A stretch of 64,000 nucleotides of DNA from Acidobacteriota bacterium (GTDB lineage: Bacteria > Acidobacteriota > Blastocatellia > Pyrinomonadales > Pyrinomonadaceae): NCBI GenBank assembly GCA_016715115.1, contig JADKBM010000013.1, positions 423,475-487,474 of the forward strand, read 5' to 3'. Every line of letters begins with the position of its first letter. The stretch's first letter is position 1. Shown here piece after piece: positions 10,555 to 60,129 of this stretch. The translations under genes were made by a program, and so were the position numbers. The notes under the pieces were generated by a model that saw only the letters and a list, made by a program, of their open reading frames with translations, was not told the origin of the DNA and ran no database searches.

Positions 10555-10692
10555 CGGATTTCGAATCGCAACTGCCGCGGCTGCCCGCCCGCTCACGCAG
10601 GCGGTACCCGACTCGCCGCAGATCACGAATCGCAAGTGCCCAATCACGAATCGCAAATGCCAAATCGCAAATGCCAAATCGCAAATCGCAAA
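10555..10692. repeat. Heptamer array (GCAAATC family, about 10 units at 10621-10692) plus 21-nt GC-rich core
   Basis: The units read gatcacg aatcgca agtgccc aatcacg aatcgca aatgcca aatcgca aatgcca aatcgca aatcgca aatca, and the last unit forms the S9 peptidase stop. The core cccgcccgctcacgcaggcgg (10584-10604) is the exact reverse complement of 37648-37668. Confidence 0.85.
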
Positions 10693-13110
10693 TCAGCGCG
10701 GCTTCGCGTTCTTGACCCACTTGTCGAACCATTCGACCTGCTCGGCGAGAACGGTTTCGATCGATTCACGGGCGCTGTAACCGTGGGACTCGAGCGGCAG
10801 CATCACGAGCCGTGCCGTGCCGCCGTTGCCCTGGATCGCGGCAAAGAGGCGTTCGGACTGGATCGGGAAGGTGCCCTGATTGTTGTCGGCCTCGCCGTGG
10901 ATCATCAACACAGGCTCATTGATCTTGTTGGCGAAAAAGAACGGCGAAACATTCTGGTAGAGTTCCTTCGCTTCCCAGAACGAGCGTCGTTCCGACTGAA
11001 AGCCGAACGGCGTCAAGGTGCGGTTGTAGGCCCCCGAACGAGCGATTCCGGCGCGGAAAATGTCCGAATGCGCGAGCAGGTTCGCGGTCATAAAGGCCCC
11101 GTAGCTGTGGCCGCCGACACCGACGCGGTCACGGTCGGTGACGCCCATCTCGACCGCCTTGTCGACCGCGGCCTGAGCTGCATCGACAACCTGCTTGATG
11201 AAGGTATCATTGACCGTCAAAGGATCGCCGACGATCGGCATCGTCGCGTCGTCGAGCACGGCATAGCCCTGGAGCAGGAAAAAGAGGTGTGAATAACTTC
11301 CGATCTGCGTGAACCGATTCGTCGAACCCGCGACTTGTCCGGCGGTCGAAGCATCGGTGAATTCGAGCGGATACGCCCAGACGACGGTCGGAAGCCGCGT
11401 CCCTTGTTTGTAATTCGGCGGCAAATAGAGCGTGAACGAGAGATCGACGCCGTCGGCGCGCTTGTATTTTACGAGCTGTTTCGTGATCCCGCGCAGTTGC
11501 GGCGCCGGATCCTTGAATTCGGTAAACTGACGATCGTAAACCGCGAGACATTCTGTCTTCGGCGGACAAACCTGGCGGAGACGAAGATTCGGCGGCTCGG
11601 TCGTCGATTCACGACGCGTGATGAACTGCGTCCCGTTGTCGTTCTGGAGAGCAACAAACGTTTCATAAGACGTCGTGTCCGAACGGAAGACCTCTTCGAA
11701 CTTCAGCGTCTGCAGATTCATCCGGCGCAGAAACGGCCGATCGCCTTCGGGCGAAGCGCCGGCGCCGGTCAGGAAGATATCGTCCCCGTCCTGATGCATA
11801 ACCGCGAAACCGTTCGCGAGACGTTTCGTCAGCGGTTGGCCGATGTCGCCGTAGCGATCGTTGACGCTGAGGTCGGAGATGAGCCGCGGCGTGCCCGGAT
11901 TACGGTAATCGACCGCGAAAACGCGTCGGCGCTGGGAGTCTCGATTGTAGTCGTAGAAGAACATCAGCCCGTCGCGCTCGCCGAAAACGCGGCCCATAAG
12001 ACGCTGTTCGATTTTGAACATCTCGGCCGGCGCACCATTGAACGGGGCGTCGATGCGAACCAGACGGTCGCGCTGCGCGACCTTTTTGCGCGGGTCGCCG
12101 TCGTCGAGCGCTTCGGCCCAAACGAGCGACGCGCCCTCGGTCGGAATCCATCCGTAGCTGCGCGGTCCGACGGGAACGCCCTGCGCGGGCAGGTTGTCCT
12201 GGAGCGGGATGCTCGCCACCTTGTAAACCGACTTGCCGTTCAGATCCCAGACTTCGACTTCCTTCGGAAAGCGGTTGAACGGGAAAAGATAAGAGAACGG
12301 TCGCTTGATGCGCGACGTCAGGATGTATTTTCCGTCCGGCGAAACGTCGCCGTTATCGAAGATTCCCGGCGCTCCGATGTTCTTGATCTTGCCGTCGAGG
12401 CTTACGACGGCAATCTGCGACGTCGCGTAATACTCGAACAGTTTTTCATCGTTGGGCGATTTGAGAAGATCCTGAAACGTCTGGACGACGCCTGTCTTTC
12501 CGGCCGTTTCCTGCATATTCGGAGACGTCGGAACGAGGTTCTGATACGCCGGCGCCGGACCCCGGTTCGCCGGAACAAGGCTGACGATCAGATGCTTCTG
12601 GTCGGGCATCCAGTCAAACTCGCCAAAAGCGGTGTTGACCTGCACGCCGTCGATCTTGCGGGCCTTGGCGGTCGCGGTTTCGACGATCCAGAGTTCGATT
12701 CCGGTCGGGGTGATATTGCCGACCGCGATGAATTTGCCGTCGCCGCTCCACGTCGGCGAAATGATCTTCGCTCCGGCGGGCAAGGCGACCGCGGTTTCCT
12801 TGCCGTCGGCGATGCTCTTGAGCGTCAGTTTGACGAAATACGGCTGTCGATGCTGCGAATTGCTGTTCGGATTGATACGCAAACCGGCGATCCGGAGCAT
12901 CGGTTCCGCAAGTTCGGCGATCGGCGGATAGCGCAACGGTTCGAGCAACGCGACGCGGTCCTTTGCGGGGCTGACCGAGGTCGAAGGGATCGCCGGTGCA
13001 TTGAGAACGTCGAGGATCTCCTTCGGCGGTTTCTTGTATTGCGCGTCGGCGGTTACCGCGATCGCGAGAATGGCCAGCACCAAAGCGGCCAGGTAATTCA
13101 TCTTTTTCAT
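10693..13110 (-). CDS. S9 family serine peptidase (prolyl oligopeptidase / dipeptidyl aminopeptidase type), secreted
   Basis: 805 aa. Signal peptide, N-terminal propeller-like region, and a C-terminal alpha/beta hydrolase with nucleophile elbow GGHSYGAFM and HGEADNN...H. Confidence 0.85.
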   Translation of the reverse strand: MKKMNYLAALVLAILAIAVTADAQYKKPPKEILDVLNAPAIPSTSVSPAKDRVALLEPLRYPPIAELAEPMLRIAGLRINPNSNSQHRQPYFVKLTLKSIADGKETAVALPAGAKIISPTWSGDGKFIAVGNITPTGIELWIVETATAKARKIDGVQVNTAFGEFDWMPDQKHLIVSLVPANRGPAPAYQNLVPTSPNMQETAGKTGVVQTFQDLLKSPNDEKLFEYYATSQIAVVSLDGKIKNIGAPGIFDNGDVSPDGKYILTSRIKRPFSYLFPFNRFPKEVEVWDLNGKSVYKVASIPLQDNLPAQGVPVGPRSYGWIPTEGASLVWAEALDDGDPRKKVAQRDRLVRIDAPFNGAPAEMFKIEQRLMGRVFGERDGLMFFYDYNRDSQRRRVFAVDYRNPGTPRLISDLSVNDRYGDIGQPLTKRLANGFAVMHQDGDDIFLTGAGASPEGDRPFLRRMNLQTLKFEEVFRSDTTSYETFVALQNDNGTQFITRRESTTEPPNLRLRQVCPPKTECLAVYDRQFTEFKDPAPQLRGITKQLVKYKRADGVDLSFTLYLPPNYKQGTRLPTVVWAYPLEFTDASTAGQVAGSTNRFTQIGSYSHLFFLLQGYAVLDDATMPIVGDPLTVNDTFIKQVVDAAQAAVDKAVEMGVTDRDRVGVGGHSYGAFMTANLLAHSDIFRAGIARSGAYNRTLTPFGFQSERRSFWEAKELYQNVSPFFFANKINEPVLMIHGEADNNQGTFPIQSERLFAAIQGNGGTARLVMLPLESHGYSARESIETVLAEQVEWFDKWVKNAKPR

Positions 13111-13124
13111 TTCAAACTCCTGGG

Positions 13125-13514
13125 TTAATCGATTCTGAAAGTTATCTTGAAGACTGCGGATTCGCGGCGCCGGGCGTAGGCGCGCGGCATCAGAACCCGG
13201 ACAACATAAGTTCCGCTTCTTTCAAGCGCGGTCGAGAATTCGGTTTCGCCGTTCGTCAGATTCTCGCCGGACGGATTGCGAACGATAAACTCGAGGCCCT
13301 CGTGCGAGGTCGTAAGTTCCACGAACAAAGTCTGGCCGCCCTTCGCCGGGATCAGATAGTCCCTGTATTTATAGCCCTTTACGACTCCGGCGTAGGTTCC
13401 GCCCGAAGTTCCGGGGTTGAACCTGACGCGGACTTTCGTCTGTGCCGCGGCGCTCTGTCCGGCGGCGAGAACGGCGATCGAAGCAACGATGACAACAAAG
13501 GTCTTTTTCAACAT
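13125..13514 (-). CDS. Small secreted protein, function unknown
   Basis: The internal ATG at 13514 gives MLKKTFVVIVASIAVLAAGQSAAAQ (signal peptide) plus a beta-rich domain of about 100 aa. The longer ORF to 13697 would overlap the upstream gene. Confidence 0.55.
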   Translation of the reverse strand: MLKKTFVVIVASIAVLAAGQSAAAQTKVRVRFNPGTSGGTYAGVVKGYKYRDYLIPAKGGQTLFVELTTSHEGLEFIVRNPSGENLTNGETEFSTALERSGTYVVRVLMPRAYARRRESAVFKITFRID

Positions 13515-13525
13515 TGGCTTTTCAG

Positions 13526-14521: not shown

Positions 14522-14622
14522 AGTGAAATCCTCGAAAGTTCTTTACGAAAGGTGGTTTTCAGAGTATAAACGAAAAGCAGTCCGGGCGGAAAATGGAACT
14601 TTGGAATTTGAACTTTGATCTT

Positions 14623-14753
14623 TGACTGGAGCGCAAGCGTCCCGCTTGCAACGGCGCCACGCGCCGAGAGGCTATGACATTTCGTCGCTTCGATTTCCAA
14701 CGACCCCTTCGCGCTCCGCGCTCATTGCAAGCGGGACGCTTGCGCTCCAGTCA
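14623..14753. repeat. Perfect 29-bp inverted repeat flanking a 73-nt spacer, in a divergent promoter region
   Basis: tgactggagcgcaagcgtcccgcttgcaa (14623-14651) and ttgcaagcgggacgcttgcgctccagtca (14725-14753). Each arm also holds an internal hairpin GCAAGCG-TCC-CGCTTGC. Confidence 0.9.
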
Positions 14754-14769
14754 GAGCCAACCCCTTTTT

Positions 14770-16053: not shown

Positions 16054-16166
16054 GGTGTCCCTTTCAAAAACAAAAATACTCTTGAAACTTGTGGCGCGAG
16101 AACCTAAAATCGAAGACGGTCGCTCGTGTTTCGCACCTTTGACCGATCTTACCCGAAAATTCTCCG

Positions 16167-17912: not shown

Positions 17913-17974
17913 CCTCTCGGTTCAGACGGACTTGAGAGAAAAGGCGACGGCGAGTCGCCGCCGCGTTTCAGCCC

Positions 17975-20603: not shown

Positions 20604-20642
20604 GAAAAAAGCCAAAAGGGCCGGTCGTGAAATGACCGGCCC
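20604..20642 (-). terminator. Rho-independent terminator of the MqnD-like gene
   Basis: The minus strand reads gggccggtcatttcacgaccggccc followed by ttttggctttttt. Confidence 0.7.
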
Positions 20643-20669
20643 TTTCCGCGGTTACCTTTTCTCTCTTTT

Positions 20670-22950: not shown

Positions 22951-23035
22951 GGAGATTTGTGATCTCTGATCTGGGTTTGCGGATCCTGCCTGCTTTTGAA
23001 GGATCCGCAATCCCAGATCACGAATCCGAAATCTC
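22951..23035. repeat. Imperfect palindrome built of GATTTNN-type heptamers
   Basis: The left arm is ggagatttgtgatctctgatctgggtttgcggatcc, the loop is tgcctgcttttgaa, and the right arm is ggatccgcaatcccagatcacgaatccgaaatctc. The right arm includes the ubiX stop and its last 5 codons. Confidence 0.8.
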
Positions 23036-23635
23036 TTCGCCGGTCCATTGCGATCGCCGCGAATGAGGAATATCGAACTGGTCGAGGATCCGGTAGCAAA
23101 GGTGATCGACGAGTTCGCCGATCGATTGCGGCCGGTGATAAAAACCGGGACTTGCCGGCAAGATCCGCGCGCCGGCACGGGACAGCCGGAGCATATTCTC
23201 GAGGTGAATCGCGTTCAGAGGCGTTTCCCGCGGGACGATGACCAGTTTTCGCCCTTCTTTCAAGCAGACATCAGCGGCGCGATGAATGAGATTCGTTCCG
23301 GCGCCGCTCGCGATCGCGCCGAGGGTTCCCATCGAACACGGAACGATGATCATTCCGGCCTGTTTGTTGGACCCTGAAGACGGTTTCGCGGCGAGATTGT
23401 CGAGTCGCCAGAGCCGGATCAGTTTTGAATCCTTCGGCAGCCCGAGCCAATCGTTGATCCGCGCCGTGTCCGCATCCTTGAGATTGACGCCGAGTTCGAC
23501 CTGCGCGACCGTCCAAACGACTCCCGACATAATCAGGTTGACCGTTTCCACGACCCCGCTTTCGGCCAGAAGCTGCAAAGTCCGGTAAGCGTAGATCGTG
23601 CCGGAAGCGCCGGTGATCGCGAGTGTTAGTTCCAT
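23018..23635 (-). CDS. ubiX: UbiX-family flavin prenyltransferase
   Basis: MELTLAITGASGTIYAYRTLQLL...IIVPCSMGTLGAIASG...L.HRAADVCLKEGRKLVIVPRETPL is the canonical UbiX/Pad1 pattern. The last 5 codons and the stop lie inside a heptamer palindrome. Confidence 0.85.
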   Translation of the reverse strand: MELTLAITGASGTIYAYRTLQLLAESGVVETVNLIMSGVVWTVAQVELGVNLKDADTARINDWLGLPKDSKLIRLWRLDNLAAKPSSGSNKQAGMIIVPCSMGTLGAIASGAGTNLIHRAADVCLKEGRKLVIVPRETPLNAIHLENMLRLSRAGARILPASPGFYHRPQSIGELVDHLCYRILDQFDIPHSRRSQWTGEEISDS

Positions 23636-23787
23636 AAGTCGATCTGGGAATCGGGATCTGCGAATTCGGATTCGCCGCAACGATCGGTATGAGCCGCGGT
23701 TGATCACGATTCCTTATTCATTTACGTAATGATACGCGGGTTTTGAGCCGGCGCGCAATCAACCTCGCGTATGCTACTATTTTACGA

Positions 23788-24536: not shown

Positions 24537-24665
24537 CAGCAGAGTGCAGAGTGCAGAGTGCAAAGTGCAGAGTGCAGAGAGCATAGTGCATAGTGCATAG
24601 TGCAGAGTGCAAGTGCTTACCCTTTGAACTCTGCACTATGCACTTTGCACTCTGCACTCTGCACT
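24537..24665. repeat. Heptamer palindrome (GCAGAGT / ACTCTGC) between convergent genes; likely bidirectional terminator hairpin
   Basis: About 11 GCAGAGT/GCATAGT/GCAAAGT units (24537-24616), the loop ttaccctttgaa, then 5 complementary units ctctgcactatgcactttgcactctgcactctgcact (24629-24665). Confidence 0.85.
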
Positions 24666-26152: not shown

Positions 26153-27883
26153 CTAGAATTTCGCGCCCAACCGGTCCGCGATCTCGTCGATCGAAACCTC
26201 GGTGATCGACTTTGAAGCGCGTTCGACCAGTTCGACGATCCCCTCGTCCGCGCGCTTGCCGATATTGACCCGGTAAGGAATCCCGATTAGATCGGCGTCC
26301 TTGAATTTCACGCCGGCGCGCTCGTCGCGGTCGTCGAGCAGAACAGCCAGCCCATCGCGTGAGATTTCACGATAGAGCCGTTTTCCGAGTTCCAAAAGCT
26401 TTTCATCGCGAACATTCGTGACCGTCAGAACGACATCGAACGGAGCCGTTGCCGGCGACCAGATTATACCATCGGCGTCGTGGCTCTGCTCAATAACCGA
26501 CGCCATAATGCGTTCGACACCGATACCGTAGCTGCCCATCACGAGCGGTACGGCCTTGCCGTTCTCGTCAAGAACGTTGGCGCCCATCGCGACCGAGTAT
26601 TTGGTCCCGAGTTTGAAGATATGGCCGATCTCGAGCGACTTTGCGACCTCGAGCATTCCGGTGCCGCATTCCGGACATCCTTCGCCCGAACTGACAAGAC
26701 GCAGGTCGGCCCATTCATCGACCGGAATGTCGCGCGCAACATCCACCCCCCGCAAGTGATGGTCGTCGCGATTCGCGCCGGTCGTCATATTCGTGCGGCC
26801 GCTGAGCGCCCGGTCGGCAATGATCGTCAGCTTCCGGCCGGCGGCTTTTTGCCGGGCATTGACGGCGCCGAGGCTTCCGGCGTGCGCGCCGAGAAGTCCG
26901 TAGATCTCATCATCTTCGGCCGGTCTGATCTCGTCGGCGCGGAGCGCGTCCTGAAGCTTCGTATCCTGCAGCTGATGGTCGCCGCGCAGGAGCGCGATCA
27001 CGAAACTCTCGGAACCGTTCGTTTTCGCTACGTAGATCAGCGATTTGACCTGCCGCTCGGCCGGGGCCCCGCCCGCGAAACTGGCGAGTTGATCGATCGT
27101 CCGCACGCCCGGGGTCGGAAATTCCTCCGGCGCATTCAAACCGGGTTCATCTTCGACGGCTGAAAGACGCGACGTCGCTTTTTCGACGTTCGCCGCATAG
27201 CCGCAACTGTCGCAAACGGCGATCAGGTCCTCGCCGGCGTCGGTTCGGACCATAAACTCGGTCGATGCCGAGCCGCCCATCGCGCCCGACGACGCTTCGA
27301 CCATCACGAACCGCAAACCGCAGCGCGAAAAGATCTTCTTGTATGCCTCGCGGTGTTTTTCGAACGATTCGTCGAGGCCTTCGGGTTTGAGGTCGAACGA
27401 ATACGAATCCTTCATCGTGAATTGGCGAACGCGAAGGAGTCCGGATTTCGGCCGCGCCTCGTCGCGGAATTTCGTCTGGATCTGATACCAGATCTGCGGC
27501 AGCTGCTTGTACGAGCGAAGTTCGTTGCGGGCAATGGCGGTGAAGACTTCCTCGTGAGTCATTCCAAGACAAAGATCCGCGCCCTTGCGGTCCTTGAGCC
27601 GGAACATATTGTCGCCCATCAACTGCCAACGGCCGGTTTCTTCCCAGATCTCGCGCGGATTCAGTGCCGGAAGCAGGAATTCCTGGGCGCCGATCGCGGC
27701 CATTTCCTCACGGACGATGGCGTTGATCTTGTTCAGCACGATCTGCGCCAGCGGCAGATACGAATAAATCCCGGCCGCCAACTGCCGGATCATTCCGGCC
27801 CTCAACAGCAAACGGTGCGACGCGCACTCAGCATCCGCCGGAGTTTCCTTCACGGTCGGAATAAAAAGATTTGACCAAAACAC
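26153..27883 (-). CDS. proS: Proline--tRNA ligase (bacterial type with editing insertion)
   Basis: 576 aa, GTG start. [46 protein letters not shown], class II motifs, and a C-terminal anticodon-binding domain. Confidence 0.9.
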
Positions 27884-27894
27884 TTTTTAATAGC

Positions 27895-28452
27895 GGATTT
27901 CTGATTTCGGATTTTGGATTGTCAGAAACCGACGCGTTCAATTGTATGCCCCGGCTTCACAATCAACAAGTATTTCGGCAAGCCAAGGTCCAAAATCCAG
28001 ATTTCAGATTCCAGATTCCAGATTCCAGAGATTCCAGAGATTCCAGATTCCAGATTTCAGATTCCAGAGATTCCAGATTCCAGATTCCAGAGATTCCAGA
28101 TTCCAGATTCCAGATTCCAGAAATTCCAGATTCCAGATTTCAGATTCCAGATTCCAGAAATTCCAGATTCCAGAGATTCCAGATTCCAGATTCCAGAGAT
28201 TCCAGAAATTCCAGATTTCAGATTCCAGATTTCAGATTCCAGAAATTCCAGATTCCAGAGATTCCAGAAATTCCAGATTCCAGATTCCAGAGATTCCAGA
28301 AATTCCAGATTCCAGATTCCAGAGATTCCAGATTCCAGAGATTCCAGATTCCAAGAATTCAACATCTTCCAGATTCAATGGAATTTGGAATTTGGAATTT
28401 GGAATCTGGAATATCTGAAATCCCAAATCCCAAATCCCAAATCCCAAATCCA
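27895..28452. repeat. Largest array: 46 tandem 7/9-nt units (AGATTCC / AGAGATTCC / AGAAATTCC) with nested inverted arms
   Basis: My parse of 28001-28355 gives 29 heptamers, 16 nonamers and 1 terminal 8-mer. Inverted short arm GGAATTT/GGAATCT at 28378-28413. (CCCAAAT)n at 28414-28451 pairs with GGATTTCTGATTTCGGATTTTGGATT at 27895-27920. Confidence 0.95.
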
Positions 28453-36801: not shown

Positions 36802-36920
36802 GTTGAGCTTGGATTTTTGTATTTGAGGTTGATTTTCGAGCTTTGAGCTTTGAGCTCCGGGCTCCGAGTTCGTTCCAAACTCAAAGATCAAAGCTCTAAC
36901 TTCCAAGCTCGAAGTTCGAC
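36802..36920. repeat. Heptamer palindrome (GAGCTTT / AAAGCTC family)
   Basis: gagctttgagctttgagctccgggctccgag...aaactcaaagatcaaagctctaacttccaagctcgaag. It starts 4 nt after the glyA stop and ends just upstream of the next gene. Confidence 0.8.
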
Positions 36921-37602: not shown

Positions 37603-37720
37603 ATTGGGATTTGGGAATTCGGATTTGTGATTTGCGGCAAGTCAGAACCGCCTGCGTGAGCGGGCGGGCAACCACTGCACTTTTGGCCCTGGAATTCGGA
37701 ATGCCCGGAATCCCGGATCC
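37603..37720. repeat. Heptamer arms (GGGATTT / GGAATTC types) around the 21-nt GC-rich core
   Basis: attgggatttgggaattcggatttgtgatttgcgg begins right after the TGA at 37600-37602. The core ccgcctgcgtgagcgggcggg is at 37648-37668. The distal arm is ggaattcggaatgcccggaatcccggatcc. Confidence 0.8.
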
Positions 37721-46613: not shown

Positions 46614-48038
46614 ATGTACGAATTTGCCGTTACACCGGCCGTTACACAAGTCAGACGCGCCGGCGTGATCATTACGGATGTCGCTCCGGACTCTCTCGGC
46701 GTCGAGCTCGGACTTGAAAGCGGTGACCGCATCGTCAAGGTGAACGGGCGTTCGATCCGCGATTATCTCGATTTTCGATTCCAGACGTCTGGTGAGACCG
46801 AACTCGAATTCACCGTCAAGAAATCAAACGGCGAGACCTGGGAGATCGAACTCGATCGGGAAGAAGGTGAAGATTTCGGGCTCGGATTCGAACAGATCGT
46901 GCCGCGCCAATGCGCCAACGAATGTCTTTTCTGCTTCTGCAAGGGAAATCCCGAAGACGCGCGTCCGTCGCTTTTCGTGCGCGACGAAGATATCCGGCTC
47001 TCGTTTTTGTACGGGAATTACACGACGCTCTCGTCGATCACGCCCGACGAGATGAAGCGGATCGTCGAACAACGCCTGTCGCCGCAGTACGTTTCGGTCC
47101 ACGCGACGGATCTCAAGACGCGTGCCTATCTGCTTGGTGTCGATGAAAAACGGGCGGACATTTCCGACAAACTTCAGTTTCTTTTGGACAACGATATCGA
47201 GATCCACGCGCAGGTCGTACTCTGTCCGACGATCAATGACGGCGCACAGCTTGAGAAGACGCTGCGCGATCTGGCGGCGAGCTATCCGAAGGTTATCTCG
47301 ACGGCCGTCGTTCCGGTCGCGCTGACGCGCTACAACAAAGACGACCGACTGACGCGCGTGACGCCAGAATTCTGTCGCGCGACGATCAAGCAAGTCGAGA
47401 AGCTGCAGAAGGAATTTCGCAAAGAGCTGGGCGCAACGTTCGCTTTTCTCGGTGACGAGATCTACATTAAGGCGGGCGCACCGATCCCTTCGCGGCGGCA
47501 TTACGGAAACTATCCGCAGATCGAAGACGGCGTCGGGATGATCCGTTCGTTTCTGAACAGGTTCGAGAAGCTTGTCGGAACCTTGAATGGCGGCGGCGCA
47601 TTGACGAAACGCTCCAATCGAATCGACGCCCGGACCCATCTCGCCGCGTTCGTGCCGGAAAATCTAAAATCCAAAATCCAAAATCCAAAATCGAAAACCG
47701 GATCGATCCTGACCGGCGAAATGTTCGCGCCGATCCTCAGAACCGAAATCGAAAAGATCAATGCTTTGACGGGCGCGAGATTGAGCGTCCTTGCGGTTCC
47801 CAACACGTATTTCGGCGGTGATGTTTCGGTCTCGGGCCTGCTCACCGGACAGGATTATCTGGCCGTCAGGGGACAGGTCACGGGCGATTTTGTGATTATC
47901 CCGAAACATACGATCAAATCGGACGAACCGATTTTGCTCGACGGAATGACGTTCGACCAACTGAAGGAATCGTTCGAAGTTCCGATCTATGCCTTCGATC
48001 TTGAGGAACTCGCCGCCTTTGCGTTGAAGCTAAAGTAG
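46614..48038 (+). CDS. PDZ + radical-SAM-like + DUF512 protein (TIGR03279-type putative FeS enzyme)
   Basis: 474 aa. N-terminal PDZ (GLESGDRIVKVNG), a Cx3Cx2C motif (CANECLFC) and a DUF512-like C-terminus. It contains a 42-nt in-frame heptamer array (ENLKSKIQNPKSKT). Confidence 0.75.
   Translation: MYEFAVTPAVTQVRRAGVIITDVAPDSLGVELGLESGDRIVKVNGRSIRDYLDFRFQTSGETELEFTVKKSNGETWEIELDREEGEDFGLGFEQIVPRQCANECLFCFCKGNPEDARPSLFVRDEDIRLSFLYGNYTTLSSITPDEMKRIVEQRLSPQYVSVHATDLKTRAYLLGVDEKRADISDKLQFLLDNDIEIHAQVVLCPTINDGAQLEKTLRDLAASYPKVISTAVVPVALTRYNKDDRLTRVTPEFCRATIKQVEKLQKEFRKELGATFAFLGDEIYIKAGAPIPSRRHYGNYPQIEDGVGMIRSFLNRFEKLVGTLNGGGALTKRSNRIDARTHLAAFVPENLKSKIQNPKSKTGSILTGEMFAPILRTEIEKINALTGARLSVLAVPNTYFGGDVSVSGLLTGQDYLAVRGQVTGDFVIIPKHTIKSDEPILLDGMTFDQLKESFEVPIYAFDLEELAAFALKLK
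47659..47700. repeat. In-frame intragenic heptamer array (6 units, 42 nt) in the DUF512 gene
   Basis: aaaatct aaaatcc aaaatcc aaaatcc aaaatcg aaaaccg, translated as NLKSKIQNPKSKT. Confidence 0.85.
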
Positions 48039-48442: not shown

Positions 48443-49444
48443 TCAGGTTCCCGTCGAACCGTCGACGCTGTGCTTCGAATCGTCGGAAATATCGATCTCG
48501 GTCCAGTTTAGGCGCTTGACGAACTTTCGTTTGCGGACGTCGCAATCGGTTTTCGTGCAGATCTCGCAGGACGATTCAACGCAGGGGTCGGTGTGAACAA
48601 ACATCTCGATGCTCTCGCCGAATTTGGTGTCAATCAGCCGTTCGAGATCGTCGACGTCTTCGTGCGCATCTCGTGTGGTCAGATACCACGGCACCGTCAG
48701 ATGGCAGTCGATGTGCAGCGTGTTGCCGTATTTGATGATGCGGAGATTATGGAGGTCGATCCAATTGTCGCGGCGCGATTCTTCGAGGGTCGCGACGACC
48801 CTTTTCAGAAGTTCTTCGTCGGCCTCGTCCATAATCCCCGCGATCGAACCGCGGAGAATCTTGTAACCGGTGTAGATGATCACGCCGCCGAAGATCAGCG
48901 CGACCACGCTGTCAAGCCAGGCGAGTTTCGTAAACAGGATCAGGATGAGTCCGATGATGATGCCGATCGTTGAGTATGTGTCGGACTGCAAATGCTTTCC
49001 GCTCGCGACGAGGGCCAGTGAATTGTTCTTTTTGCCTTTTCTGACGGCAATGGCACCGACACCGTAATTGACGAAGGCCGTAATCGTGACGAGGATGATT
49101 CCGTAATCGAGCGAACCGATCTCGTGCGGGTGCCAGAGGTTATTGATGGCTTCATAAATGATCACGAGACCGGCGACGGCGATCAGTGTTCCCTCGATCG
49201 CCGCCGAGACGAATTCGACCTTGCCGTGACCGTAGGGGTGATTCGCGTCGCGCGGCTGGGCCGAAAGATAAAGACTGTAAAGCCCGACGAAGCCGGCGGT
49301 GACGTTGATCGTGCTCTCAAGCGCGTCGGTCAGGATCGCTACCGAATTCGTCAGATACCACGCGATGAATTTGATAACGAACAGCGCAACCCCGACCGCG
49401 GCGACGATCTTTTGAAAATTGTAGTTTTCTCGTGAGACTTCCAA
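48443..49444 (-). CDS. Cation diffusion facilitator (CDF) family metal efflux transporter with Cys-rich C-terminal tail
   Basis: The core matches CDF: IKFIAWYLTNSVAILTDALESTINV...HPYGHGKVEF...LQSDTYST. The start is uncertain (TTG at 49444 proposed). The ORF-track start at 49741 runs through the heptamer array. Confidence 0.7.
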   Translation of the reverse strand: MEVSRENYNFQKIVAAVGVALFVIKFIAWYLTNSVAILTDALESTINVTAGFVGLYSLYLSAQPRDANHPYGHGKVEFVSAAIEGTLIAVAGLVIIYEAINNLWHPHEIGSLDYGIILVTITAFVNYGVGAIAVRKGKKNNSLALVASGKHLQSDTYSTIGIIIGLILILFTKLAWLDSVVALIFGGVIIYTGYKILRGSIAGIMDEADEELLKRVVATLEESRRDNWIDLHNLRIIKYGNTLHIDCHLTVPWYLTTRDAHEDVDDLERLIDTKFGESIEMFVHTDPCVESSCEICTKTDCDVRKRKFVKRLNWTEIDISDDSKHSVDGSTGT

Positions 49445-49475
49445 GCTAATTTGATTGTAGATCGTTGAGCGCGAA

Positions 49476-49686
49476 TTGTTAATTTCGGATTCAAGATTCA
49501 AGAAAGATTTCAGATTCCGGATTCCAGGTATCCGGATTCCAGCGTTTAGGATTCCAGATTCCAGGATTCCAGGATTCCAGGATTCCAGGATTCCAGATTC
49601 CAGATTCAAGATTTCAGATTCCAAGAATTCAAGATTCCAAGAATTCAAGAATGATTCAAGATTCCAGGATTCCAGGATTCCAAGAG
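49476..49686. repeat. Heptamer array (GGATTCC / AGATTCC / AGATTCA family)
   Basis: Runs such as ggattccaggattccaggattccaggattccagattccagattcaagatttcagattcc. It lies upstream of the CDF gene start. Confidence 0.9.
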
Positions 49687-49965
49687 CCTGTCGGAAAAAT
49701 CGATTCAGTGTGCGGAGCAAACGCACATACGATAGCACCACGCGAAGCGGAGCGGAACGTGGTGTCAGCCGCGATCACCTCCAGCGAGCGTGTGAAACAC
49801 GCGGAACTGTTGCAAAAACGAGAGTTACGCGTGTTACACACGCTTAGGACGTCGGTTAGACAAGCCACCACGTTCCGCTCCGCTTCACGTGGTGTTATCG
49901 CAAGTTCGCGTGCTTCGCACGCTTGAAGAAGTAATGCCCGTTCCCAAACGGCTTTCTCCGACAGG
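49687..49965. repeat. About 279-nt nested palindromic element (possible structured RNA or MITE-like element)
   Basis: The outer arms are cctgtcgga (49687-49695) and tccgacagg (49957-49965). The 34-nt arms are gatagcaccacgcgaagcggagcggaacgtggtg (49731-49764) and caccacgttccgctccgcttcacgtggtgttatc (49866-49899), with 2 mismatches. At least four GCGTG-type mini-hairpins are present: tgtgcggagcaaacgcaca, gcgtgtgaaacacgc, gcgtgttacacacgc and gcgtgcttcgcacgc. Confidence 0.8.
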
Positions 49966-50085
49966 TTCCCAAGATCCAGATTCAAGATCCAAGATTCCAA
50001 GGATTCCAAATCCAGATTCCAAATTCCAGATTCCAGATCCGAATTCAAGATTCCAGAATTTCAAGGGTTCCAGATTGGGATCCCG
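49966..50085. repeat. Degenerate heptamer array (AGATTCC / AGATCCA family)
   Basis: ttcccaagatccagattcaagatccaagattccaaggattccaaatccagattccaaattccagattccagatccgaattcaagattccag. Confidence 0.85.
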
Positions 50086-50104
50086 AATCGCGTTGCAATC
50101 GCGT

Positions 50105-50213
50105 CGAGTCGGTACCATCTGCGGTAGCGGATGGTTGGTTGCGGCACTCGCGGACCGCAGTATTGATACCAACCTATCTTCAACCATCCGCTACCGCAGA
50201 TGGTACCGACTCG
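50105..50213. repeat. Perfect 33-bp inverted repeat with 43-nt spacer
   Basis: cgagtcggtaccatctgcggtagcggatggttg (50105-50137) and caaccatccgctaccgcagatggtaccgactcg (50181-50213). The spacer holds a small hairpin, tgcgg...ccgca. Confidence 0.9.
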
Positions 50214-50249
50214 TCCCGACCCCGCATACAAAGAACCCGTGGGTTTTTC

Positions 50250-50392
50250 AAAGCTCCAGATTCAAGATTCCAGATTGAAGGATCTCGAGTCCGGGCGTTT
50301 TAGATTTCTTGAATCGTGGAATCTGGAATCTTGGAATCGAAAATCCCAAATCCCAAATCCCAAATCCCAAATCCCAAATCCCAAATCCCAAA
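50250..50392. repeat. Heptamer arrays ending in (CCCAAAT)x7, abutting the xdhC stop
   Basis: ccagattcaagattccagattgaag...ggaatctggaatcttggaatcg, then 7 CCC tracts at 50345-50389. The final aaatca supplies the TGA of xdhC (50393-50395). Confidence 0.9.
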
Positions 50393-51421
50393 TCAGCGGT
50401 TCTTGACCGCGATGATCTCGGCCGCGATCGATATGGCGATCTCTTCAGGCGTTCGGCTGTTGATCGGAAGCCCGATCGGCGTCCGGATCCGTTTTAGCCG
50501 TTCGCCTTCGAAACCCTCCTTTTTCAATGAGTTCAGCAGAACCTTCATCTTGGCCTTGCTTCCCAAAACCCCGAAGTATTTGAAGTTCTTGTCAACAAGG
50601 CGACGGATGACGATCTCGTCGAAGCGGTATCCGAGCGTCATTGCGACGACGTAATGGTCCTCGCCGGAGTCGATCATCTGGTCGATCGACTCGTATGAGT
50701 CAATGATCGTTTTGCGATCCGCGAAGACGTTCTTCTCGACCGTGTTGAGTTCGTTTCGGTCATCGAACAACTCGATGTGAAAATCGAGTTTCGCCATCAA
50801 CTCCGAAAGTGCAAGCGCGCAATGCCCGCCGCCGACGATGAAAAGTCTCGGCTTTCGACCGATCGTTTCTTCATAAACGAACTTCGAAGCTCCGCCCTTA
50901 GAAGTTCCGCCGTATGGAGTTCCGCCTTCAGGCGGCCCTTCCTCCGCCACCCAGAACCCGATTTCCGACGAACCGAAGTCATCGGAGATCGCCAGCCCGC
51001 GTTCAGTGATCTTGAACCGGATCACCCGCGATTCGCCGAGCGCGTCGCAAATCGCACGTACCGTCGGCAGATCACCCGCGTCGAGCGCGCAGACGATCAC
51101 CGTCTGGCTTCCCGAGCAGATCATCCCGCTCGCGTCCGGAACATTCGGCCGGTGAACAAGCGTTTGGATTTTGGATTTTGGATTTTGGACTTCGGATTCG
51201 TCGGTGCGATCGTTGCGCGCTTGATCGACGAGCGCAACCTCCATCACACCGCCGCCGATCGAGCCAATCATTTCGTCATCGGCGACAACCATTTTGAATC
51301 CCGCGCGGCCGGGCGAACTGCCTGAACTCTCGGCGACGACGATCAAGATCGCGCGTTCGCCCGAATCCAGACGTTCGCGGGCAAAGTTCCAGAGTTCCGA
51401 TTCAAACCTCATTCGATGCAT
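50393..51421 (-). CDS. xdhC: XdhC/CoxI family molybdenum-cofactor insertion accessory protein
   Basis: ATG at 51421 (or 51412). The N-domain reads AILIVVAESSGSSPGRAGFKMVV and the C-terminal Rossmann reads RLFIVGGGHCALALSELM. It carries in-frame repeat insertions (QNPKSKIQ; PPEGGTPYGGTSKGGASK). Confidence 0.8.
   Translation of the reverse strand: MHRMRFESELWNFARERLDSGERAILIVVAESSGSSPGRAGFKMVVADDEMIGSIGGGVMEVALVDQARNDRTDESEVQNPKSKIQTLVHRPNVPDASGMICSGSQTVIVCALDAGDLPTVRAICDALGESRVIRFKITERGLAISDDFGSSEIGFWVAEEGPPEGGTPYGGTSKGGASKFVYEETIGRKPRLFIVGGGHCALALSELMAKLDFHIELFDDRNELNTVEKNVFADRKTIIDSYESIDQMIDSGEDHYVVAMTLGYRFDEIVIRRLVDKNFKYFGVLGSKAKMKVLLNSLKKEGFEGERLKRIRTPIGLPINSRTPEEIAISIAAEIIAVKNR
50882..50937. 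repeat. Intragenic (xdhC) 15-nt x3 tandem repeat overlapping the 22-nt hairpin element
   Basis: The sense strand reads GGCGGAACTCCATAC GGCGGAACTTCTAAG GGCGGAGCTTCGAAG (GGTPY GGTSK GGASK). GGAGTTCCGCCTTCAGGCGGCC at 50916-50937 is identical to 52359-52380. Confidence 0.8.
51167..51208. repeat. In-frame intragenic heptamer array in xdhC
   Basis: ggatttt ggatttt ggatttt ggacttc ggattcg (tcggtgc), translated on the minus strand as ESEVQNPKSKIQ. Confidence 0.8.
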
Positions 51422-53980: not shown

Positions 53981-53992
53981 TACGAATTAGAT

Positions 53993-54470
53993 GGTAGACG
54001 GTAGACGGTAGACGGTAGAGGGTAGACGGTAGACGGTAGAGGGTAGACGGTAGACGGTAGACGGTAGAGGGTAGACGGTAGACGGTAGAGGGTAGACGGT
54101 AGAGGGTAGACGGTAGACGGTAGACGGTAGACGGTAGACCGCCAACCTCTCACTGCTCACCTCTCACCTCTCACCTCTCACTGCTCACCTCTCACTGCTC
54201 ACCTCTCACTGCTCACCTCTCACTGCTCACCTCTCACTGCTCACCTCTCACCGCTCACCTCTCATTGCTCACCTCTCACTCACTGCTCACCTCTCACCTC
54301 TCACCTCTCACCGACCACTGACCACCGACCACTGACCACCGACCACTGCTCACTGCTCACCGCTCACCGCTCACCGCTCACTGCTCACCGCTCACTGCTC
54401 ACCGCTCACCGCTCACTGCTCACCGCTCACCGCTCACCGCTCACCGCTCACCGCTCACCGCTCACTGCCA
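53993..54470. repeat. Composite heptamer arrays filling the xdhA-xdhB spacer
   Basis: 21 units of GGTAGAC/GGTAGAG (53993-54139). Then CTCTCAC/TGCTCAC units (about 54147-54310), CGACCACTGACCAC units (about 54311-54347) and GCTCACC/GCTCACT units (to about 54470) that include the xdhA stop and last codons. Confidence 0.95.
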
Positions 54471-55899
54471 CGAAGTGCGCCCGGAAAAGCTGGCGCGCCA
54501 ACAGACGTTTGTATTCGGCCGAACCGCGAACGTCGGAGATCGGCGCGATCTCCGTTTGCAGGATCGCCTCCGCTTCTTCGAGGATCGCATCGTTGATCGG
54601 TTTTCCGCTCAGGAACGCCGAGGTCTTTCTTAACAACAAAGGCGTCGGCGCGACCCCGCCGATCGAGACGCGCGCCGTTTCGACAACATCGCCCGAAAGC
54701 CTGAGCGCGATCGCCGTATTAACAGAAGCGATGTCAAGATAGGTTCGTTTCGAGACCTTTTCAAAATTGAAATGCGTGAAATCCTTGCGAATTGAGATCT
54801 TCGAAATGATCTCCGACTCAACCTTTGCGAGCTGCTTGTAACCCAAATACAAATCAGATAACGCAATGTTCCGAATTCCGAAATCCGAATTCCCAATTCC
54901 GAAATCGCGTAGTTCCAATTCGGCGTCGAGCGCCAGAAAAAAGACCGTCATATCGCCGATCGGCGAGGCATTTACAAAATTGCCGGCGAGCGTCGCCATA
55001 TTCCTGATCGGCGTCGACGAAACCAATTTCAAATACTTGTCAAGGTTCGGAAAAAGCCGATGGAAGACTTCAGACTCGAGCAAGTCGGTGACGACGACAG
55101 ACGGGCCGATCTCGACCGTTTCGTCGGTCTCGCGGATGAACCGAAGCGCAGGATCGTCAAACAAACTCGTCGCACCCGCGTGGACCATTTCGTCGTGCTT
55201 CTGAACGTAAAGGTCCGTGCCGCCGGCGACGAATCTTGGGGTGGTGATTTCGGATGATACGGATTTCAGACCTTCGGAGTCGGGATGTTCGCGCACCAAC
55301 AATTCGAGACGCCGCCCGATGGATTCGAAATATTTCGGAACCGCACCGGCGGCGATCGCCTTCTCGATTTGCGACTGTGACTTGTTGAGCATCGCATTGC
55401 CGAAATCCGAAATCCCAAATCCCAAATCCGAAATCCTCTCGCACGCCCGCTCGATCGACTTGTAACCCGTGCAGCGGCAAATGTTTCCGTCGATCGCCGC
55501 AACCACCGATTCTTTGGTTTTCTGACCGTCGCCGAGGCAAAAACCGGTCAGAGACATCACGAATCCAACCGTGCAGAATCCGCATTGAGTTCCGGATTCG
55601 TCGACCAACGCTGCCTGCGCGGGTGTCAGGCTTCCGTCGGCCGGGTTGATTCCTTCGACAGTCACGATATGCTTGCCGCGCGCATTCAAGAGCGGCATCA
55701 GGCACGATGTCATCGAACGATATCTGAGGTCTCCGTCCTTGAGTTCACCGACGAGGATCGTGCACGCCCCGCAATCCCCTTCGCGGCAGCCGATCTTCGT
55801 TCCCTTCAGATTCTTGTGATACCGAACAAAGTCGAGCACCGTCGTTCCGCCTGGGAGATCGGTTTCGACGGATTGATTGTTGAGAATAAATTCGATCAT
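54448..55899 (-). CDS. xdhA: Xanthine dehydrogenase small subunit (2x [2Fe-2S] + FAD-binding domains)
   Basis: The ATG at 55899 gives MIEFILNNQSV. Contains CREGDCGACT, CGFCTVGFVMS and CRCTGYKSI, then FAD_binding_5-like VAGGTDLYV. There are two in-frame heptamer insertions, and the last codons are repeat-encoded. Confidence 0.85.
   Translation of the reverse strand: MIEFILNNQSVETDLPGGTTVLDFVRYHKNLKGTKIGCREGDCGACTILVGELKDGDLRYRSMTSCLMPLLNARGKHIVTVEGINPADGSLTPAQAALVDESGTQCGFCTVGFVMSLTGFCLGDGQKTKESVVAAIDGNICRCTGYKSIERACERISDLGFGISDFGNAMLNKSQSQIEKAIAAGAVPKYFESIGRRLELLVREHPDSEGLKSVSSEITTPRFVAGGTDLYVQKHDEMVHAGATSLFDDPALRFIRETDETVEIGPSVVVTDLLESEVFHRLFPNLDKYLKLVSSTPIRNMATLAGNFVNASPIGDMTVFFLALDAELELRDFGIGNSDFGIRNIALSDLYLGYKQLAKVESEIISKISIRKDFTHFNFEKVSKRTYLDIASVNTAIALRLSGDVVETARVSIGGVAPTPLLLRKTSAFLSGKPINDAILEEAEAILQTEIAPISDVRGSAEYKRLLARQLFRAHFVAVSGER
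54871..54909. repeat. In-frame intragenic heptamer-type array in xdhA (FAD domain)
   Basis: ccgaattccgaaatccgaattcccaattccgaaatcgcg, translated on the minus strand as RDFGIGNSDFGIR. Confidence 0.75.
55401..55436. repeat. In-frame intragenic heptamer array in xdhA (linker after the 2Fe-2S domains)
   Basis: cgaaatc cgaaatc ccaaatc ccaaatc cgaaatc c, translated on the minus strand as SDLGFGISDFG. Confidence 0.8.
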
Positions 55900-55907
55900 T
55901 ATTCCAG

Positions 55908-56030
55908 CCACGAATCGCACCAATTTCACGAACGCAACCCTTTATGCGACGTTGTTGATCCAACCGCCAAAAGCGCGGCGCATCAGGTGCGTTCCTGAAA
56001 AAACAGTCGTGAAATTCGTGCGATTCGTGG
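55908..56030. repeat. 23-bp inverted repeat (1 mismatch) with 77-nt spacer, immediately upstream of xdhA
   Basis: ccacgaatcgcaccaatttcacg (55908-55930) and cgtgaaattcgtgcgattcgtgg (56008-56030). The stem extends via gaacgca/tgcgttc. Confidence 0.85.
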
Positions 56031-56040
56031 CAAAGCGCAA

Positions 56041-56547: not shown

Positions 56548-56622
56548 TTCTGGAATTCAGTTCTGCGATTCAGGACTCCGGCAGTTCGAAAATCCAAAAT
56601 CAGAAATCACATACCGAATTCC
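56502..56622. repeat. Heptamer palindrome (GATTTCG / CGAAATC family)
   Basis: The left arm is tgatttcggaattgtgaatttggatttcggcgattcgaa. The right arm is cgaaaatccaaaatcagaaatcacataccgaattcc, ending at the deaminase stop (56623). Confidence 0.8.
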
Positions 56623-57102: not shown

Positions 57103-57122
57103 CAAATGTGAATCAAAAGTCA

Positions 57123-57956: not shown

Positions 57957-58117
57957 AAGTCCGATTTGATGGTCCGGTTCGTCGATCCGTTCCCTGATGA
58001 ATTCTTTCGGCTTGACCCGACGATCTTCGCAAGCGCGAGTTTGCCGGAGTTGCCGCGCTTCGAGCAAATGGCCGAGACAGTTCGCTTCAGTGATTCGGTC
58101 TGCAGATCGAAACGGCA

Positions 58118-59449: not shown

Positions 59450-59593
59450 GACGCGGGTTTGATTCGGCTTTTTCGAATAAAGATGTCGCTCGACAGAAGT
59501 TCTTAATTTATCGTAACGGCCGGGCGCGTGCAACGCGTCGGAGAATCGCCGTCGGTTGAGTTATGATTATTGTGAACCGTGGAGGGAGAAAGT

Positions 59594-59935
59594 ATGTCGG
59601 ATGTTAGATTCTCGGGTACCGTCGATCACCTGGCTCTGAAATGCGCCGACCTTGAGGAGGCGGTTGCGGAGTACAAACGGCTTGGGTTTTCGCTCGAGAC
59701 GATCTATGAAGATTGGGCGATGATGCGCGACGCTCGCGGTTTTGGCATCGCGCTGCTGCCGCCCGAGTCGAAGCATCCGCCGCACATCGGATTGCGCGTC
59801 GAATCGATGGAGGAACTTGAAAAAGCCGCCCGCGCCGAGGGCCGGCCGATCAAGCCGCACCGCGACGGAACCTCGTCGTTTTACACCAAAGGCGTCGACG
59901 GACAGATCATCGAATTGATCTGCTACCCGGAATGA
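59594..59935 (+). CDS. VOC (glyoxalase/bleomycin-resistance/dioxygenase) family protein
   Basis: ATG at 59594 preceded by GGAGGGAG. VDHLALKCADLEEAVAEYKRLGF...HIGLRV. Confidence 0.7.
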   Translation: MSDVRFSGTVDHLALKCADLEEAVAEYKRLGFSLETIYEDWAMMRDARGFGIALLPPESKHPPHIGLRVESMEELEKAARAEGRPIKPHRDGTSSFYTKGVDGQIIELICYPE

Positions 59936-60129
59936 TTTTGGATTTGCGATTTGCGATTTTGGATTCCAGATATTCCAGATATTCCAGATTCCAACATCGA
60001 AAATTCCAAATTCCAAATTCCAAATTCCAAATTCCAAATTCCAAAATCCAAAATCCAAAATCGCAAATCGCAAATCGCAAATCGCAAATCGCAAATCGCA
60101 AATCGCAAATCGCAAATTCCAAAATCGAA
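59936..60129. repeat. Composite heptamer array between the VOC gene stop and the glycosylase start
   Basis: gattttg gatttgc gatttgc gattttg, then gattcca/gatattcca units, then aaattcc x6, aaaatcc x2-3, aaatcgc x8, and finally aaaatcgaa-ATG. The 5' arm is the reverse complement of the 3' AAATCGC block. Confidence 0.95.

Follow-up and report, generated by a model that had tools for sequence, protein, structure and literature searches.

The 64,000-nt stretch analyzed here (contig JADKBM010000013.1 of an Acidobacteriota bacterium of the Pyrinomonadaceae, positions 423,475 to 487,474 of the forward strand; hereafter the window) contains a family of tandem arrays of heptanucleotide units whose polarity follows the ends of the neighbouring genes. 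On the sense strand, the arrays tend to be G-rich directly after stop codons and C-rich directly before start codons. These two preferences are a single fact, the order of a G-rich arm followed by a C-rich arm within a hairpin, because a hairpin built in this order reads identically on both strands. On the mRNA, the spacer usually folds into a stem that brings the stop codon and the following start codon together. The heptamer arrays characterise the lineage as a whole (Pyrinomonadaceae/Blastocatellia, with a weaker showing in other Acidobacteriota) and are not peculiar to the window.

Heptanucleotide arrays and their polarity at gene ends

Using Tandem Repeats Finder (TRF), we identified 21 period-7 arrays in the window that are non-redundant and reach 2.8 copies or more, with a total length of 1,686 bp, and period 7 was by far the commonest repeat period among the TRF arrays. 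When the window was subjected to 20 mononucleotide shuffles, zero or one period-7 array was detected in each, with an average of ~0.1. Head-to-tail 7-nt units are therefore present far above chance, which places the arrays in the heptanucleotide simple-sequence repeat class, similar to the short tandemly repeated repetitive (STRR) sequences. An earlier reading of this DNA, made from the sequence alone (the sequence-only reading), had proposed a window-wide family of this kind, and the eight units that it listed (AAATCGC, AGATTCC, AAATCCC, AAAATCC, GCAGAGT, GAGCTTT, GGTAGAC, and GCTCACC) were all recovered. The names it gave to genes near the arrays were confirmed by Pfam, with matches to S9 peptidase, flavoprotein/UbiX, AIRC/LarB-like, XdhC, XdhA-like Fer2/FAD, cytidine deaminase, glyoxalase/VOC, and SHMT. 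Every stop junction that it quoted reads as stated, but the one at ubiX is weak and consists of degenerate units below the TRF threshold.

Each array was assigned a polarity according to whether its G-C skew, read in the sense direction of the neighbouring gene, was positive or negative, and genes were called with a self-trained codon-usage caller that recovers the Pfam-confirmed genes. Within 10 nt after stop codons, nine arrays of the window were G-rich and none C-rich, and within 10 nt before start codons three were C-rich and none G-rich. The same distances were scored in 80 related loci around xdhB (1.3 Mb, or 1.36 Mb together with the window; mostly Pyrinomonadaceae; individual loci are denoted L001 and so on), where 37 G-rich and 5 C-rich arrays followed stops (p = 4e-7), and 4 G-rich and 27 C-rich arrays preceded starts (p = 3e-5). 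A more distant set of 80 acidobacterial contigs around proS (0.88 Mb, at most 69% identity, and unsuited to synteny) showed a weaker polarity, with 16 G to 6 C after stops and 1 G to 5 C before starts. Arrays detected in only one orientation obeyed the rule as well, with 12 G-rich and 2 C-rich arrays past stops and 2 G-rich and 11 C-rich arrays ahead of starts. The polarity at stop codons put forward in the sequence-only reading is thus non-random and is replicated in independent genomes, but to call it strict is too strong, with exceptions of ~12% in the relatives.

The polarity fades by 150 nt, because at this distance the second, inverted arm enters the count. In co-directional spacers, the bias in arm order follows the proximity of the stop codon, with 47 G-first and 15 C-first hairpins within 15 nt and 7 and 11, respectively, beyond 40 nt (Fisher p = 0.008). 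Lag-7 periodicity climbs from the first base of the stop codon, which in several cases belongs to a one-mismatch copy of the unit (TGATTTG beside GGATTTG or CGATTTG). The TGA stop of the S9 peptidase gene and the stop of xdhC both sit within the first unit (TGATTTG) of their arrays, and the arrays that follow the VOC gene (first unit TGATTTT) and the stop at 37602 begin 1 nt past the stop. A 10-nt identity between two such junctions (CAAATCAGCG, at 10689 and 50389), to which the earlier reading had drawn attention, is real, but the bases flanking it differ on both sides; it simply combines the AAATC end common to both units with the reverse complement of TGA and three to four coincident bases.

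Other sources of the polarity were considered and rejected. An artefact of gene calling could arise if open reading frames (ORFs), whose stop codons lack C, ran on through C-rich arrays; most units, however, are stop-free in all six frames. Of 64 arrays within coding sequence that are C-rich in sense, only one was located 60 nt or less from the 3' end of an ORF. Amplification of the local base composition was discarded on the grounds that array-free flanks have a GC skew of ~0. Birth of the arrays from a duplicated stop-codon heptamer, or a role as stop barriers in all frames, was likewise discarded, as the units of G-rich arms contain 22 stop triplets against 26.6 expected from letter-shuffled units.

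Hairpin architecture and turnover across the lineage

Array-bearing spacers lay mostly between co-directional genes (73 of 88), and the pattern read in the sense direction was G-then-C in 24 cases and C-then-G in one. Neighbouring arrays of opposite skew were ordered G-C in 29 pairs and C-G in three, and the arms were reverse-complementary at six or more of seven positions in 23 of the 29 G-C pairs, compared with 8% for randomly re-paired units. In the typical element, a stem of ~26 bp closed by a ~25-nt loop begins ~5 nt past the stop codon and ends ~8 nt ahead of the next start codon (stem and gaps as medians of the array-based co-directional hairpins). The G-rich arm usually begins 0-6 nt past the stop, and the C-rich arm ends 0-8 nt before the next start.

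Folding of the spacers was compared with mononucleotide shuffles, to which all z-scores refer. The z-scores were -13.9 for the convergent larB/TPR-protease spacer (minimum free energy -88.5), where the G-rich arm comes first on either mRNA, and -13.8 for the spacer from the stop at 28454 to proS. These were followed by the spacers from the VOC gene (-6.3) and the deaminase gene (-5.3) to their next genes, the spacer between the stops at 37602 and 37730 (-4.7), the glyA spacer (-3.9), and the S9 spacer (-3.3), and the 948-nt spacer between xdhC and the cation-efflux (CDF) gene reached -31.7. Two spacers were exceptions, namely xdhA-xdhB (z = -1.0), whose GGTGAGC and TAGACGG arrays (46 and 21.7 copies) have no complementarity to each other, and the divergent ubiX/larB spacer (z = -1.3). 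The inter-cistronic palindromes that had been proposed are accordingly present in most spacers but not in these two. No match to the families of Rfam 15 reached the gathering score in the window.

Two other inverted repeats are found beside arrays. The first (14620-14651/14725-14756; 32-nt arms, 97% complementary, 73-nt spacer) adjoins the GAACTTT array in the divergent spacer between a beta-lactamase-like gene and an amino-acid permease gene, which folds with z = -9.7. The second (50099-50137/50181-50219; 39-nt arms, 95% complementary, 43-nt spacer) is located in the xdhC-to-CDF spacer, and its core CTGCGGTAGCGG resembles the 20-mer CCGCCTGCGTGAGCGGGCGG, which is present as two exact copies, at 10585-10604(-) and 37648-37667(+) (0.05 expected by chance). 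This 20-mer is itself a small hairpin, and each copy is central in a heptamer-array hairpin, one being enclosed by the distal part of the S9-stop array and the other lying at the centre of the TTGGGAT hairpin. Spacers of L040 and L060 contain related copies, and the 20-mer appears to represent a family of its own that resembles repetitive extragenic palindromes (REPs).

The arrays are 11-fold denser in non-coding than in coding sequence (10.4 vs 0.94 per 10 kb). Array-bearing spacers numbered 0.81 per kb between co-directional genes, 0.38 between convergent genes, and 0.32 between divergent genes, a 2-2.5-fold enrichment; counted per spacer, the enrichment in co-directional pairs is significant only against convergent pairs (p = 0.036). 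Array length has its mode at 28-35 nt, or four to five units, in a sample where short arrays are cut by the TRF threshold and the sites within coding sequence are orthologous and not independent, and in-frame arrays peak at 32-35 nt (51 of 114 arrays).

Four arrays of the window lie in frame within coding sequence, one in the DUF512 gene, one in xdhC, and two in xdhA, a location that the sequence-only reading had overlooked. The same linker positions of XdhC, XdhA, and DUF512 carry arrays in dozens of genomes (L001-L062), with a genome-specific unit in each. The encoded peptides are periodic at seven residues (e.g., KIQNSKF, RITNYEL, and KWKMENG), and many relatives have such peptides at the XdhC linker. 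These in-frame repeats at conserved linker sites of enzymes are products of the same process as the spacer arrays. Phase-variable contingency loci, in which a simple-sequence repeat in the promoter or 5' coding region of a surface or virulence gene switches the frame, were considered for the heptamer arrays and rejected, the genes concerned being housekeeping enzymes and the linker arrays preserving the frame across Pfam domains.

Period 7 made up 260 of ~390 TRF rows in the window and the 80 related loci, and 81 of ~190 in the distant set. The closest relatives of the XdhB protein (at most 85% identity) belong to metagenome-assembled genomes (MAGs) of Pyrinomonadaceae/Blastocatellia, which identifies the window as acidobacterial. 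Most Pyrinomonadaceae loci bear arrays, including those on closed or multi-megabase contigs (L046, a 5.4-Mb chromosome with 12 arrays, L029, and L030). An assembly artefact, the possibility that the sequence-only reading had itself raised, can be set aside, since arrays occur in dozens of independent assemblies, closed chromosomes among them. Period-7 arrays near xdhB were also found in some Bacteroidota MAGs (L073, L076, and L078, from Bacteroidota/Chitinophagales, with eight in L078), and the phenomenon therefore extends beyond Acidobacteriota.

Comparison of syntenic loci revealed differences in unit and length as well as array-free spacers among relatives. L001 is syntenic with the window at 48-63 kb, and its orthologous spacers hold arrays of other units and lengths; the TAGACGG unit is found in both, at different spacers. 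At four orthologous spacers that were compared, relatives have either a spacer of 0-20 nt or a stop-to-start hairpin, and these hairpins are built from genome-specific, unrelated units whose arms are still complementary. The xdhA and xdhB genes, for example, overlap as ATGA in ~15 relatives (e.g., L009, L018, L025-L027, and L067) and are 467 nt apart in the window (53981-54447). The anchoring of arrays at stop codons is in part trivial for this reason, as the arrays expand inside spacers that are only 0-20 nt long in relatives. Between L029 and L049, which share 90% flank identity, the intergenic arrays have already been replaced, and an array within coding sequence shows copy-number expansion with a unit mutation spread over the copies. 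Copy number and sequence thus vary at the same locus between related genomes, as in slippage dynamics. Identical units are shared between loci of one genome in 5.2% of cases and between genomes in 1.1%, the commonest units recurring in the lineage are AAAATCC, AAATCCC, ACCACTG, and AATTACG, and the mean best identity between units of different loci within a genome is 4.3 of 7. The data fit birth in place, slippage, homogenisation, and co-evolution of arms, and not insertion of a defined mobile element. The arrays and hairpins of the window are summarized in Table 1.

Table 1. Heptamer arrays and array hairpins of the window. Positions are those of the window; (+) and (-) denote strands, and x gives the copy number.
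Feature	Position	Strand	Context
GTCTTTG-type short array, 3.4 copies	2987..3010	G-rich on -	5 nt past stop of gene 3016-4584(-); outside the coordinates given in the sequence-only reading
ATTTGCG/ATTTGGC array, ~11 units	10617..10694	G-rich on -	End of S9 peptidase gene 10693-13110(-)
GAACTTT x4.3	14596..14625	+	In divergent spacer 14522-14769; adjoins 32-nt-arm inverted repeat
Degenerate units GAGATTT CGGATTC G TGA TCT GGGATTG CGGATCC	23005..23040	-	Flank ubiX stop at 23018; weak, below TRF threshold
Period-14 array of two 7-nt sub-units	23641..23671	G-rich on +	ubiX/larB divergent spacer; C-rich in ubiX sense, directly upstream of ubiX start
GCAGAGT x11.3 (24539-24616) facing inverted ACTCTGC x5.4 (24628-24665)	24539..24665	both	Between convergent larB(+) and TPR-trypsin protease gene(-)
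Composite spacer; order in - sense GGGATTT x4.9 (abutting stop), AATTCCA x4.9, ATCTGGA x46, AAATCCG x3.9 (stops 10 nt short of proS start)	27894..28451	-	Hypothetical gene stop at 28454 to proS start at 27883; TRF, folding
GAGCTTT units and inverted complement, hairpin	36838..36910	both	3' of glyA stop (36798)
TTGGGAT x4.4, pairing with degenerate arm 37697-37717	37604..37717	both	Between stop at 37602 and convergent stop at 37730
AAAATCC x5.6, in frame	47659..47697	+	Within DUF512/radical-SAM gene 46614-48038
Long spacer; order GGGATTT x7.7, degenerate 7-8-nt units, 39-nt-arm inverted repeat, ATCTGGA x12, CTGGAATC x22	49488..50394	G-rich in - sense throughout	xdhC stop (50393) to cation-efflux (CDF) gene; TRF, folding
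ATCCAAA in sense, 5.1 copies, in frame	51163..51198	-	XdhC inter-domain linker
TAGACGG x21.7, C-rich (CCGTCTA) in xdh sense	53988..54139	+	Ends 7 nt before xdhB start at 53980
GGTGAGC/GAGCGGT x46, G-rich in sense	54145..54465	-	Contains xdhA stop (54448-54450)
Period-7/21 array, in frame	54869..54921	-	Within xdhA
ATTTCGG x5.3, in frame	55400..55436	-	xdhA linker, 2Fe-2S to FAD domains
Hairpin occupying entire 75-nt spacer, 5' arm G/T-rich	56548..56622	-	Deaminase stop (56623) to next start (56547)
TTTGCGA x3.4, ATTCCAGAT x3, ATTCCAA, AAATCGC units (~21); outer arms pair	59937..60131	+	VOC stop to ATG at 60130

The arrays also have practical consequences, as they break short-read assemblies, make spurious ORFs, and extend predicted N-termini. 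A spurious ORF of 102 aa (28057-28365(-)) lies wholly within the TCCAGAT x46 array, and the cation-efflux (CDF) ORF (48443-49741(-)) is lengthened by ~100 codons through the CTGGAATC array, with Pfam and orthologue alignments beginning at residue 100-113.

The origin of the arm order

When folded as RNA, the G-rich strand of 137 arrays gave -0.079 kcal/nt and the C-rich strand -0.020 kcal/nt; the G-rich strand self-pairs via G.U, and the C-rich strand was without any structure in 95 of the 137 arrays. Start triplets are contained in 29 of 46 G-rich units vs 2 of 30 C-rich units. Across the window and L001-L062, the 10 nt ahead of all predicted starts showed no enrichment of G (A 0.34, T 0.32, G 0.17, C 0.18), and from this lack of a G peak, the lineage apparently initiates translation without a Shine-Dalgarno signal. 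We put at about even the chance that the STRR-like arrays grow and turn over in place and that their G-first order is set by selection on this asymmetry at the RNA level. Slipped-strand expansion and homogenisation of 7-nt units would generate arrays wherever selection tolerates them, mainly in very short co-directional spacers and, in frame, in protein linkers. Just behind the last ribosome, a 5' arm rich in C and poor in G would stay naked and open to Rho as long as its partner had not been transcribed; a G-rich first arm would not be so exposed, and the C-rich arm would pair on emergence. The C/A-rich arm may in addition be the only form compatible with the unstructured leaders, lacking Shine-Dalgarno sites, of this lineage, and a neutral generation of repeats filtered by selection would then yield the G-first order. 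Any action of the hairpins is probably limited to that of inter-cistronic or 3' stem-loops, with effects on stability, processing, or coupling, and does not include termination. Rho loading on C-rich antisense RNA, one of the roles suggested earlier, is not borne out by the usual paired form, which puts both arms in both transcripts and leaves no free C-rich strand.

A number of observations weigh against selection as the cause of the order. Unpaired or non-complementary arrays exist (at the S9 stop and between xdhA and xdhB), and many relatives are without any array at the orthologous spacer, which makes a needed function unlikely. The bias in arm order is not tied to the distance from the start codon (33:17 within 15 nt and 22:10 beyond 40 nt); this weakens the start-codon half of the explanation, and also the candidate in which selection acts only on the start-adjacent arm. 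The arm order of pairs in the distant acidobacterial set is unbiased (6:5), and the polarity counts come from two genomic neighbourhoods and our own gene caller, with orthologous spacers recurring, and are not fully independent. In convergent spacers, where operon polarity should not matter, G-first stems also prevail (19:6, the sum of 3:1 for array-based and 16:5 for non-array stems), which hints at a purely mechanistic cause. In such a mechanism, which is the main rival and which we consider fairly unlikely, no selection is involved: the G/T-rich strand would fold back via G.T wobble and prime its own complement, which the C/A-rich strand cannot do, inverted pairs would always be born with the G/T-rich arm 5' of the C/A-rich arm, quasipalindrome correction by template switching would keep the arms complementary, and gene ends would merely mark where expansion halts. 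The arm order is the same on both strands, so that no reference to genes is needed, and the bias extends beyond convergent to divergent spacers (9:2, array-based and non-array stems added) and is independent of start distance. The self-pairing of the G-rich strand alone, the co-evolution of arms despite complete unit turnover, and the same polarity in unrelated phyla (PMC4692102) point in the same direction. On the other hand, hairpins more than 40 nt from the stop show no G-first bias, nor do the distant acidobacterial pairs; single-orientation arrays follow the rule, although many of them may hide a degenerate partner; and fold-back priming is itself a hypothetical mechanism. The co-evolution of arms under full sequence turnover is strong evidence either for structural selection or for copying of arms by template switching, and with hundreds of Pyrinomonadaceae genomes available, the choice between a mutational by-product and a functional RNA element can now be addressed.

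Unlikely, in our judgement, is a functional organisation of operons without Shine-Dalgarno sites that is convergent across phyla and built by a dedicated, polarity-imposing process. The builder would be fold-back synthesis on the G/T-rich strand or an unknown enzyme, and the stem would run exactly from the stop to the next start. By melting the stem at its base, a terminating ribosome might unmask the start of the next gene or pass on to it; in another version, cleavage of the stem by RNase III would leave a protected, G-rich 3' end and an unstructured, C/A-rich leader. Turnover of the sequence would be unconstrained while the arms co-varied, and the same repeat engine would write the 7-residue-periodic linkers.

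Transcription terminators or attenuators at gene ends, proposed in the sequence-only reading, fit the presence of long stable stems right after stops, also at convergent pairs, and in some relatives the xdhA-xdhB and xdhB-xdhC hairpins precede T-rich tracts and a -10-like box. However, no U-tract is present, and only 0-8 nt separate the 3' arm from the next start; many arrays sit within operons, and the arrays are enriched in co-directional, operon-like spacers, including that of xdhA and xdhB, which overlap in relatives. A terminator scan of the window gave as many hits in total as expected from shuffles and flagged no intergenic array hairpin, the sole array hit being the in-frame array of the DUF512 gene (one consensus hit), and we therefore regard this role as quite improbable. 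G-quadruplexes (G4), put forward as regulatory elements for the GGGAATC and GGGGAYT repeats, would modulate expression from the non-template DNA or from the RNA of the 3' untranslated region. This would suit the two GGGATTT arrays at 28418-28451 (x4.9) and 50341-50394 (x7.7), which meet the (G3N4)4 rule on the sense strand after stops, and the length mode of four to five units in the threshold-limited sample would echo the preference for four units described in PMC4692102. Only 4 of 137 skewed intergenic arrays, nevertheless, contain at least four GGG runs, and G4 formation cannot on this count underlie the polarity. The polarity is equally clear for units without G-runs (GCAGAGT, ATTTGCG, GGTAAGC, CAGTGGT, and AATGGTA) and persists in these data once arrays with G3 tracts are set aside, and arrays of A/T-rich units within coding sequence share the modal length, which leaves this explanation very little probability. 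A selfish mobile repeat with a preference for gene 3' ends, also suggested from the sequence alone, seems barely credible. Identical units are indeed commoner between loci of one genome than between genomes, and TAGACGG recurs at different spacers in the window and L001, but sequence preference or ectopic conversion could account for such sharing. Flank conservation was not seen, nor were terminal repeats or target duplications, and the 10-nt junction identity is trivial; orthologous spacers hold unrelated units, copy number changes in place, and in-frame arrays arise in protein linkers.

Canonical terminator-like hairpins with U-tracts were identified at 20614-20646(-) and 17944-17964(-). They are not made of heptamers, and in the clearest of them, at 20614-20646(-), which the terminator scan did detect, the 5' arm is likewise G-rich and the 3' arm C-rich. 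A conserved box, GCGGTAAAAT, resembling a -10 element, is located 7-12 nt upstream of the GTG/ATG start of xdhC in L033, L036, L040, L041, L044, L053, L056, and L058; its position downstream of the hairpin suggests that xdhC transcripts may be leaderless in these genomes.

Comparison with known repeat systems

Enterobacterial REPs and bacterial interspersed mosaic elements (BIMEs) are imperfect palindromes in transcribed spacers, where the 3' stem-loops stabilise the upstream mRNA. REPs constitute a conserved sequence family of ~35 nt and are mobilised by RAYT transposases. The array hairpins are similarly imperfect palindromes between co-directional or convergent genes, but their stems are built of tandem heptamers of arbitrary sequence. 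An identity with REP/BIME elements or with miniature inverted-repeat transposable elements was rejected, as the units are unrelated between loci and the flanks are not conserved.

The heptanucleotide STRR sequences of heterocystous cyanobacteria were reportedly described by Mazel and co-workers in 1990. The likeness to them that the sequence-only reading had noted is apt: several heptamer units are present per genome in dispersed, mainly intergenic tandem arrays, and CAGTGGT/ACCACTG, which is common here, resembles the STRR units CCCCAGT and TTGGTCA. The arrays differ from STRR in the strict sense in that the host is not a heterocystous cyanobacterium and the units are not CCCCAGT, TTGGTCA, or CAACAGT. 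To our knowledge, neither a stop-to-start hairpin architecture nor co-evolution of arms has been described for STRR.

Direct repeats of the heptamer TAACTGA occur in Beggiatoaceae, cyanobacteria, and Bacteroidetes in fixed orientation directly upstream of starts (MacGregor 2015, PMC4679880). As here, these are heptamer arrays in genomes with few canonical Shine-Dalgarno sites, their spacers hold mixed heptamers, and the corresponding spacers of close relatives are shorter and repeat-free (PMC4679880). In contrast to the present arrays, there is one dominant unit without G/C skew, mostly in 2-6 copies, and an inverted arm pairing with the array from the stop upstream was not reported. A survey by Mrazek, Guo and Shah (2007), as cited in PMC4679880 and PMC4692102, found an excess of heptanucleotide repeats in some large-genome bacteria and put it down to polymerase slippage; in the parts of it that are relayed there, neither polarity nor hairpin architecture is described.

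The closest counterparts are the heptamers GGGAATC of Xanthomonas and GGGGA(C/T)T of Nostoc PCC 7120, whose tandem arrays occupy hundreds of loci, most of them non-coding (Rehm et al. 2015, PLoS One, PMC4692102). These are G-rich on the coding strand within 50 bp after stops, including repeats that overlap the stop, and G-rich on the non-coding strand within 50 bp before starts (PMC4692102). They always lie nearer to the 5' neighbour irrespective of its orientation, are enriched between co-directional and depleted between divergent ORFs with some inverted pairs, and differ in length and sequence at the same spacer in close relatives; a possible function was ascribed to G4 structures and left open (PMC4692102). 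The statement in the sequence-only reading that no stop-anchored, polarity-locked system had been described hence does not hold, the same rule having been published for Xanthomonas and Nostoc. We found no report of heptamer repeats in Acidobacteria in the literature, and no follow-up explaining the polarity described by Rehm et al.

The arrays of the window share with those of Xanthomonas and Nostoc the polarity at stops and starts, the enrichment between co-directional genes, the inverted pairs, and the variation between relatives, and the unit GGAATCT is identical at six of seven positions to GGAATCG, a rotation of GGGAATC. They differ in the host phylum, in the many unrelated units per genome as against essentially one, in the scarcity of G4-capable arrays, in the pairing of most arrays into stop-to-start hairpins, and in the common occurrence of in-frame linker arrays. 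A polarity that extends across dozens of unrelated units without G4 potential removes the only rationale published for it. Heptanucleotide arrays have thus been known since 1990, as STRR, and their polarity at gene ends since 2015; the novel features of the present case are the phylum, the diversity of unit types within a genome, the almost complete lack of G4 potential, the stop-to-start hairpin with co-evolving arms, and the in-frame arrays at conserved sites.

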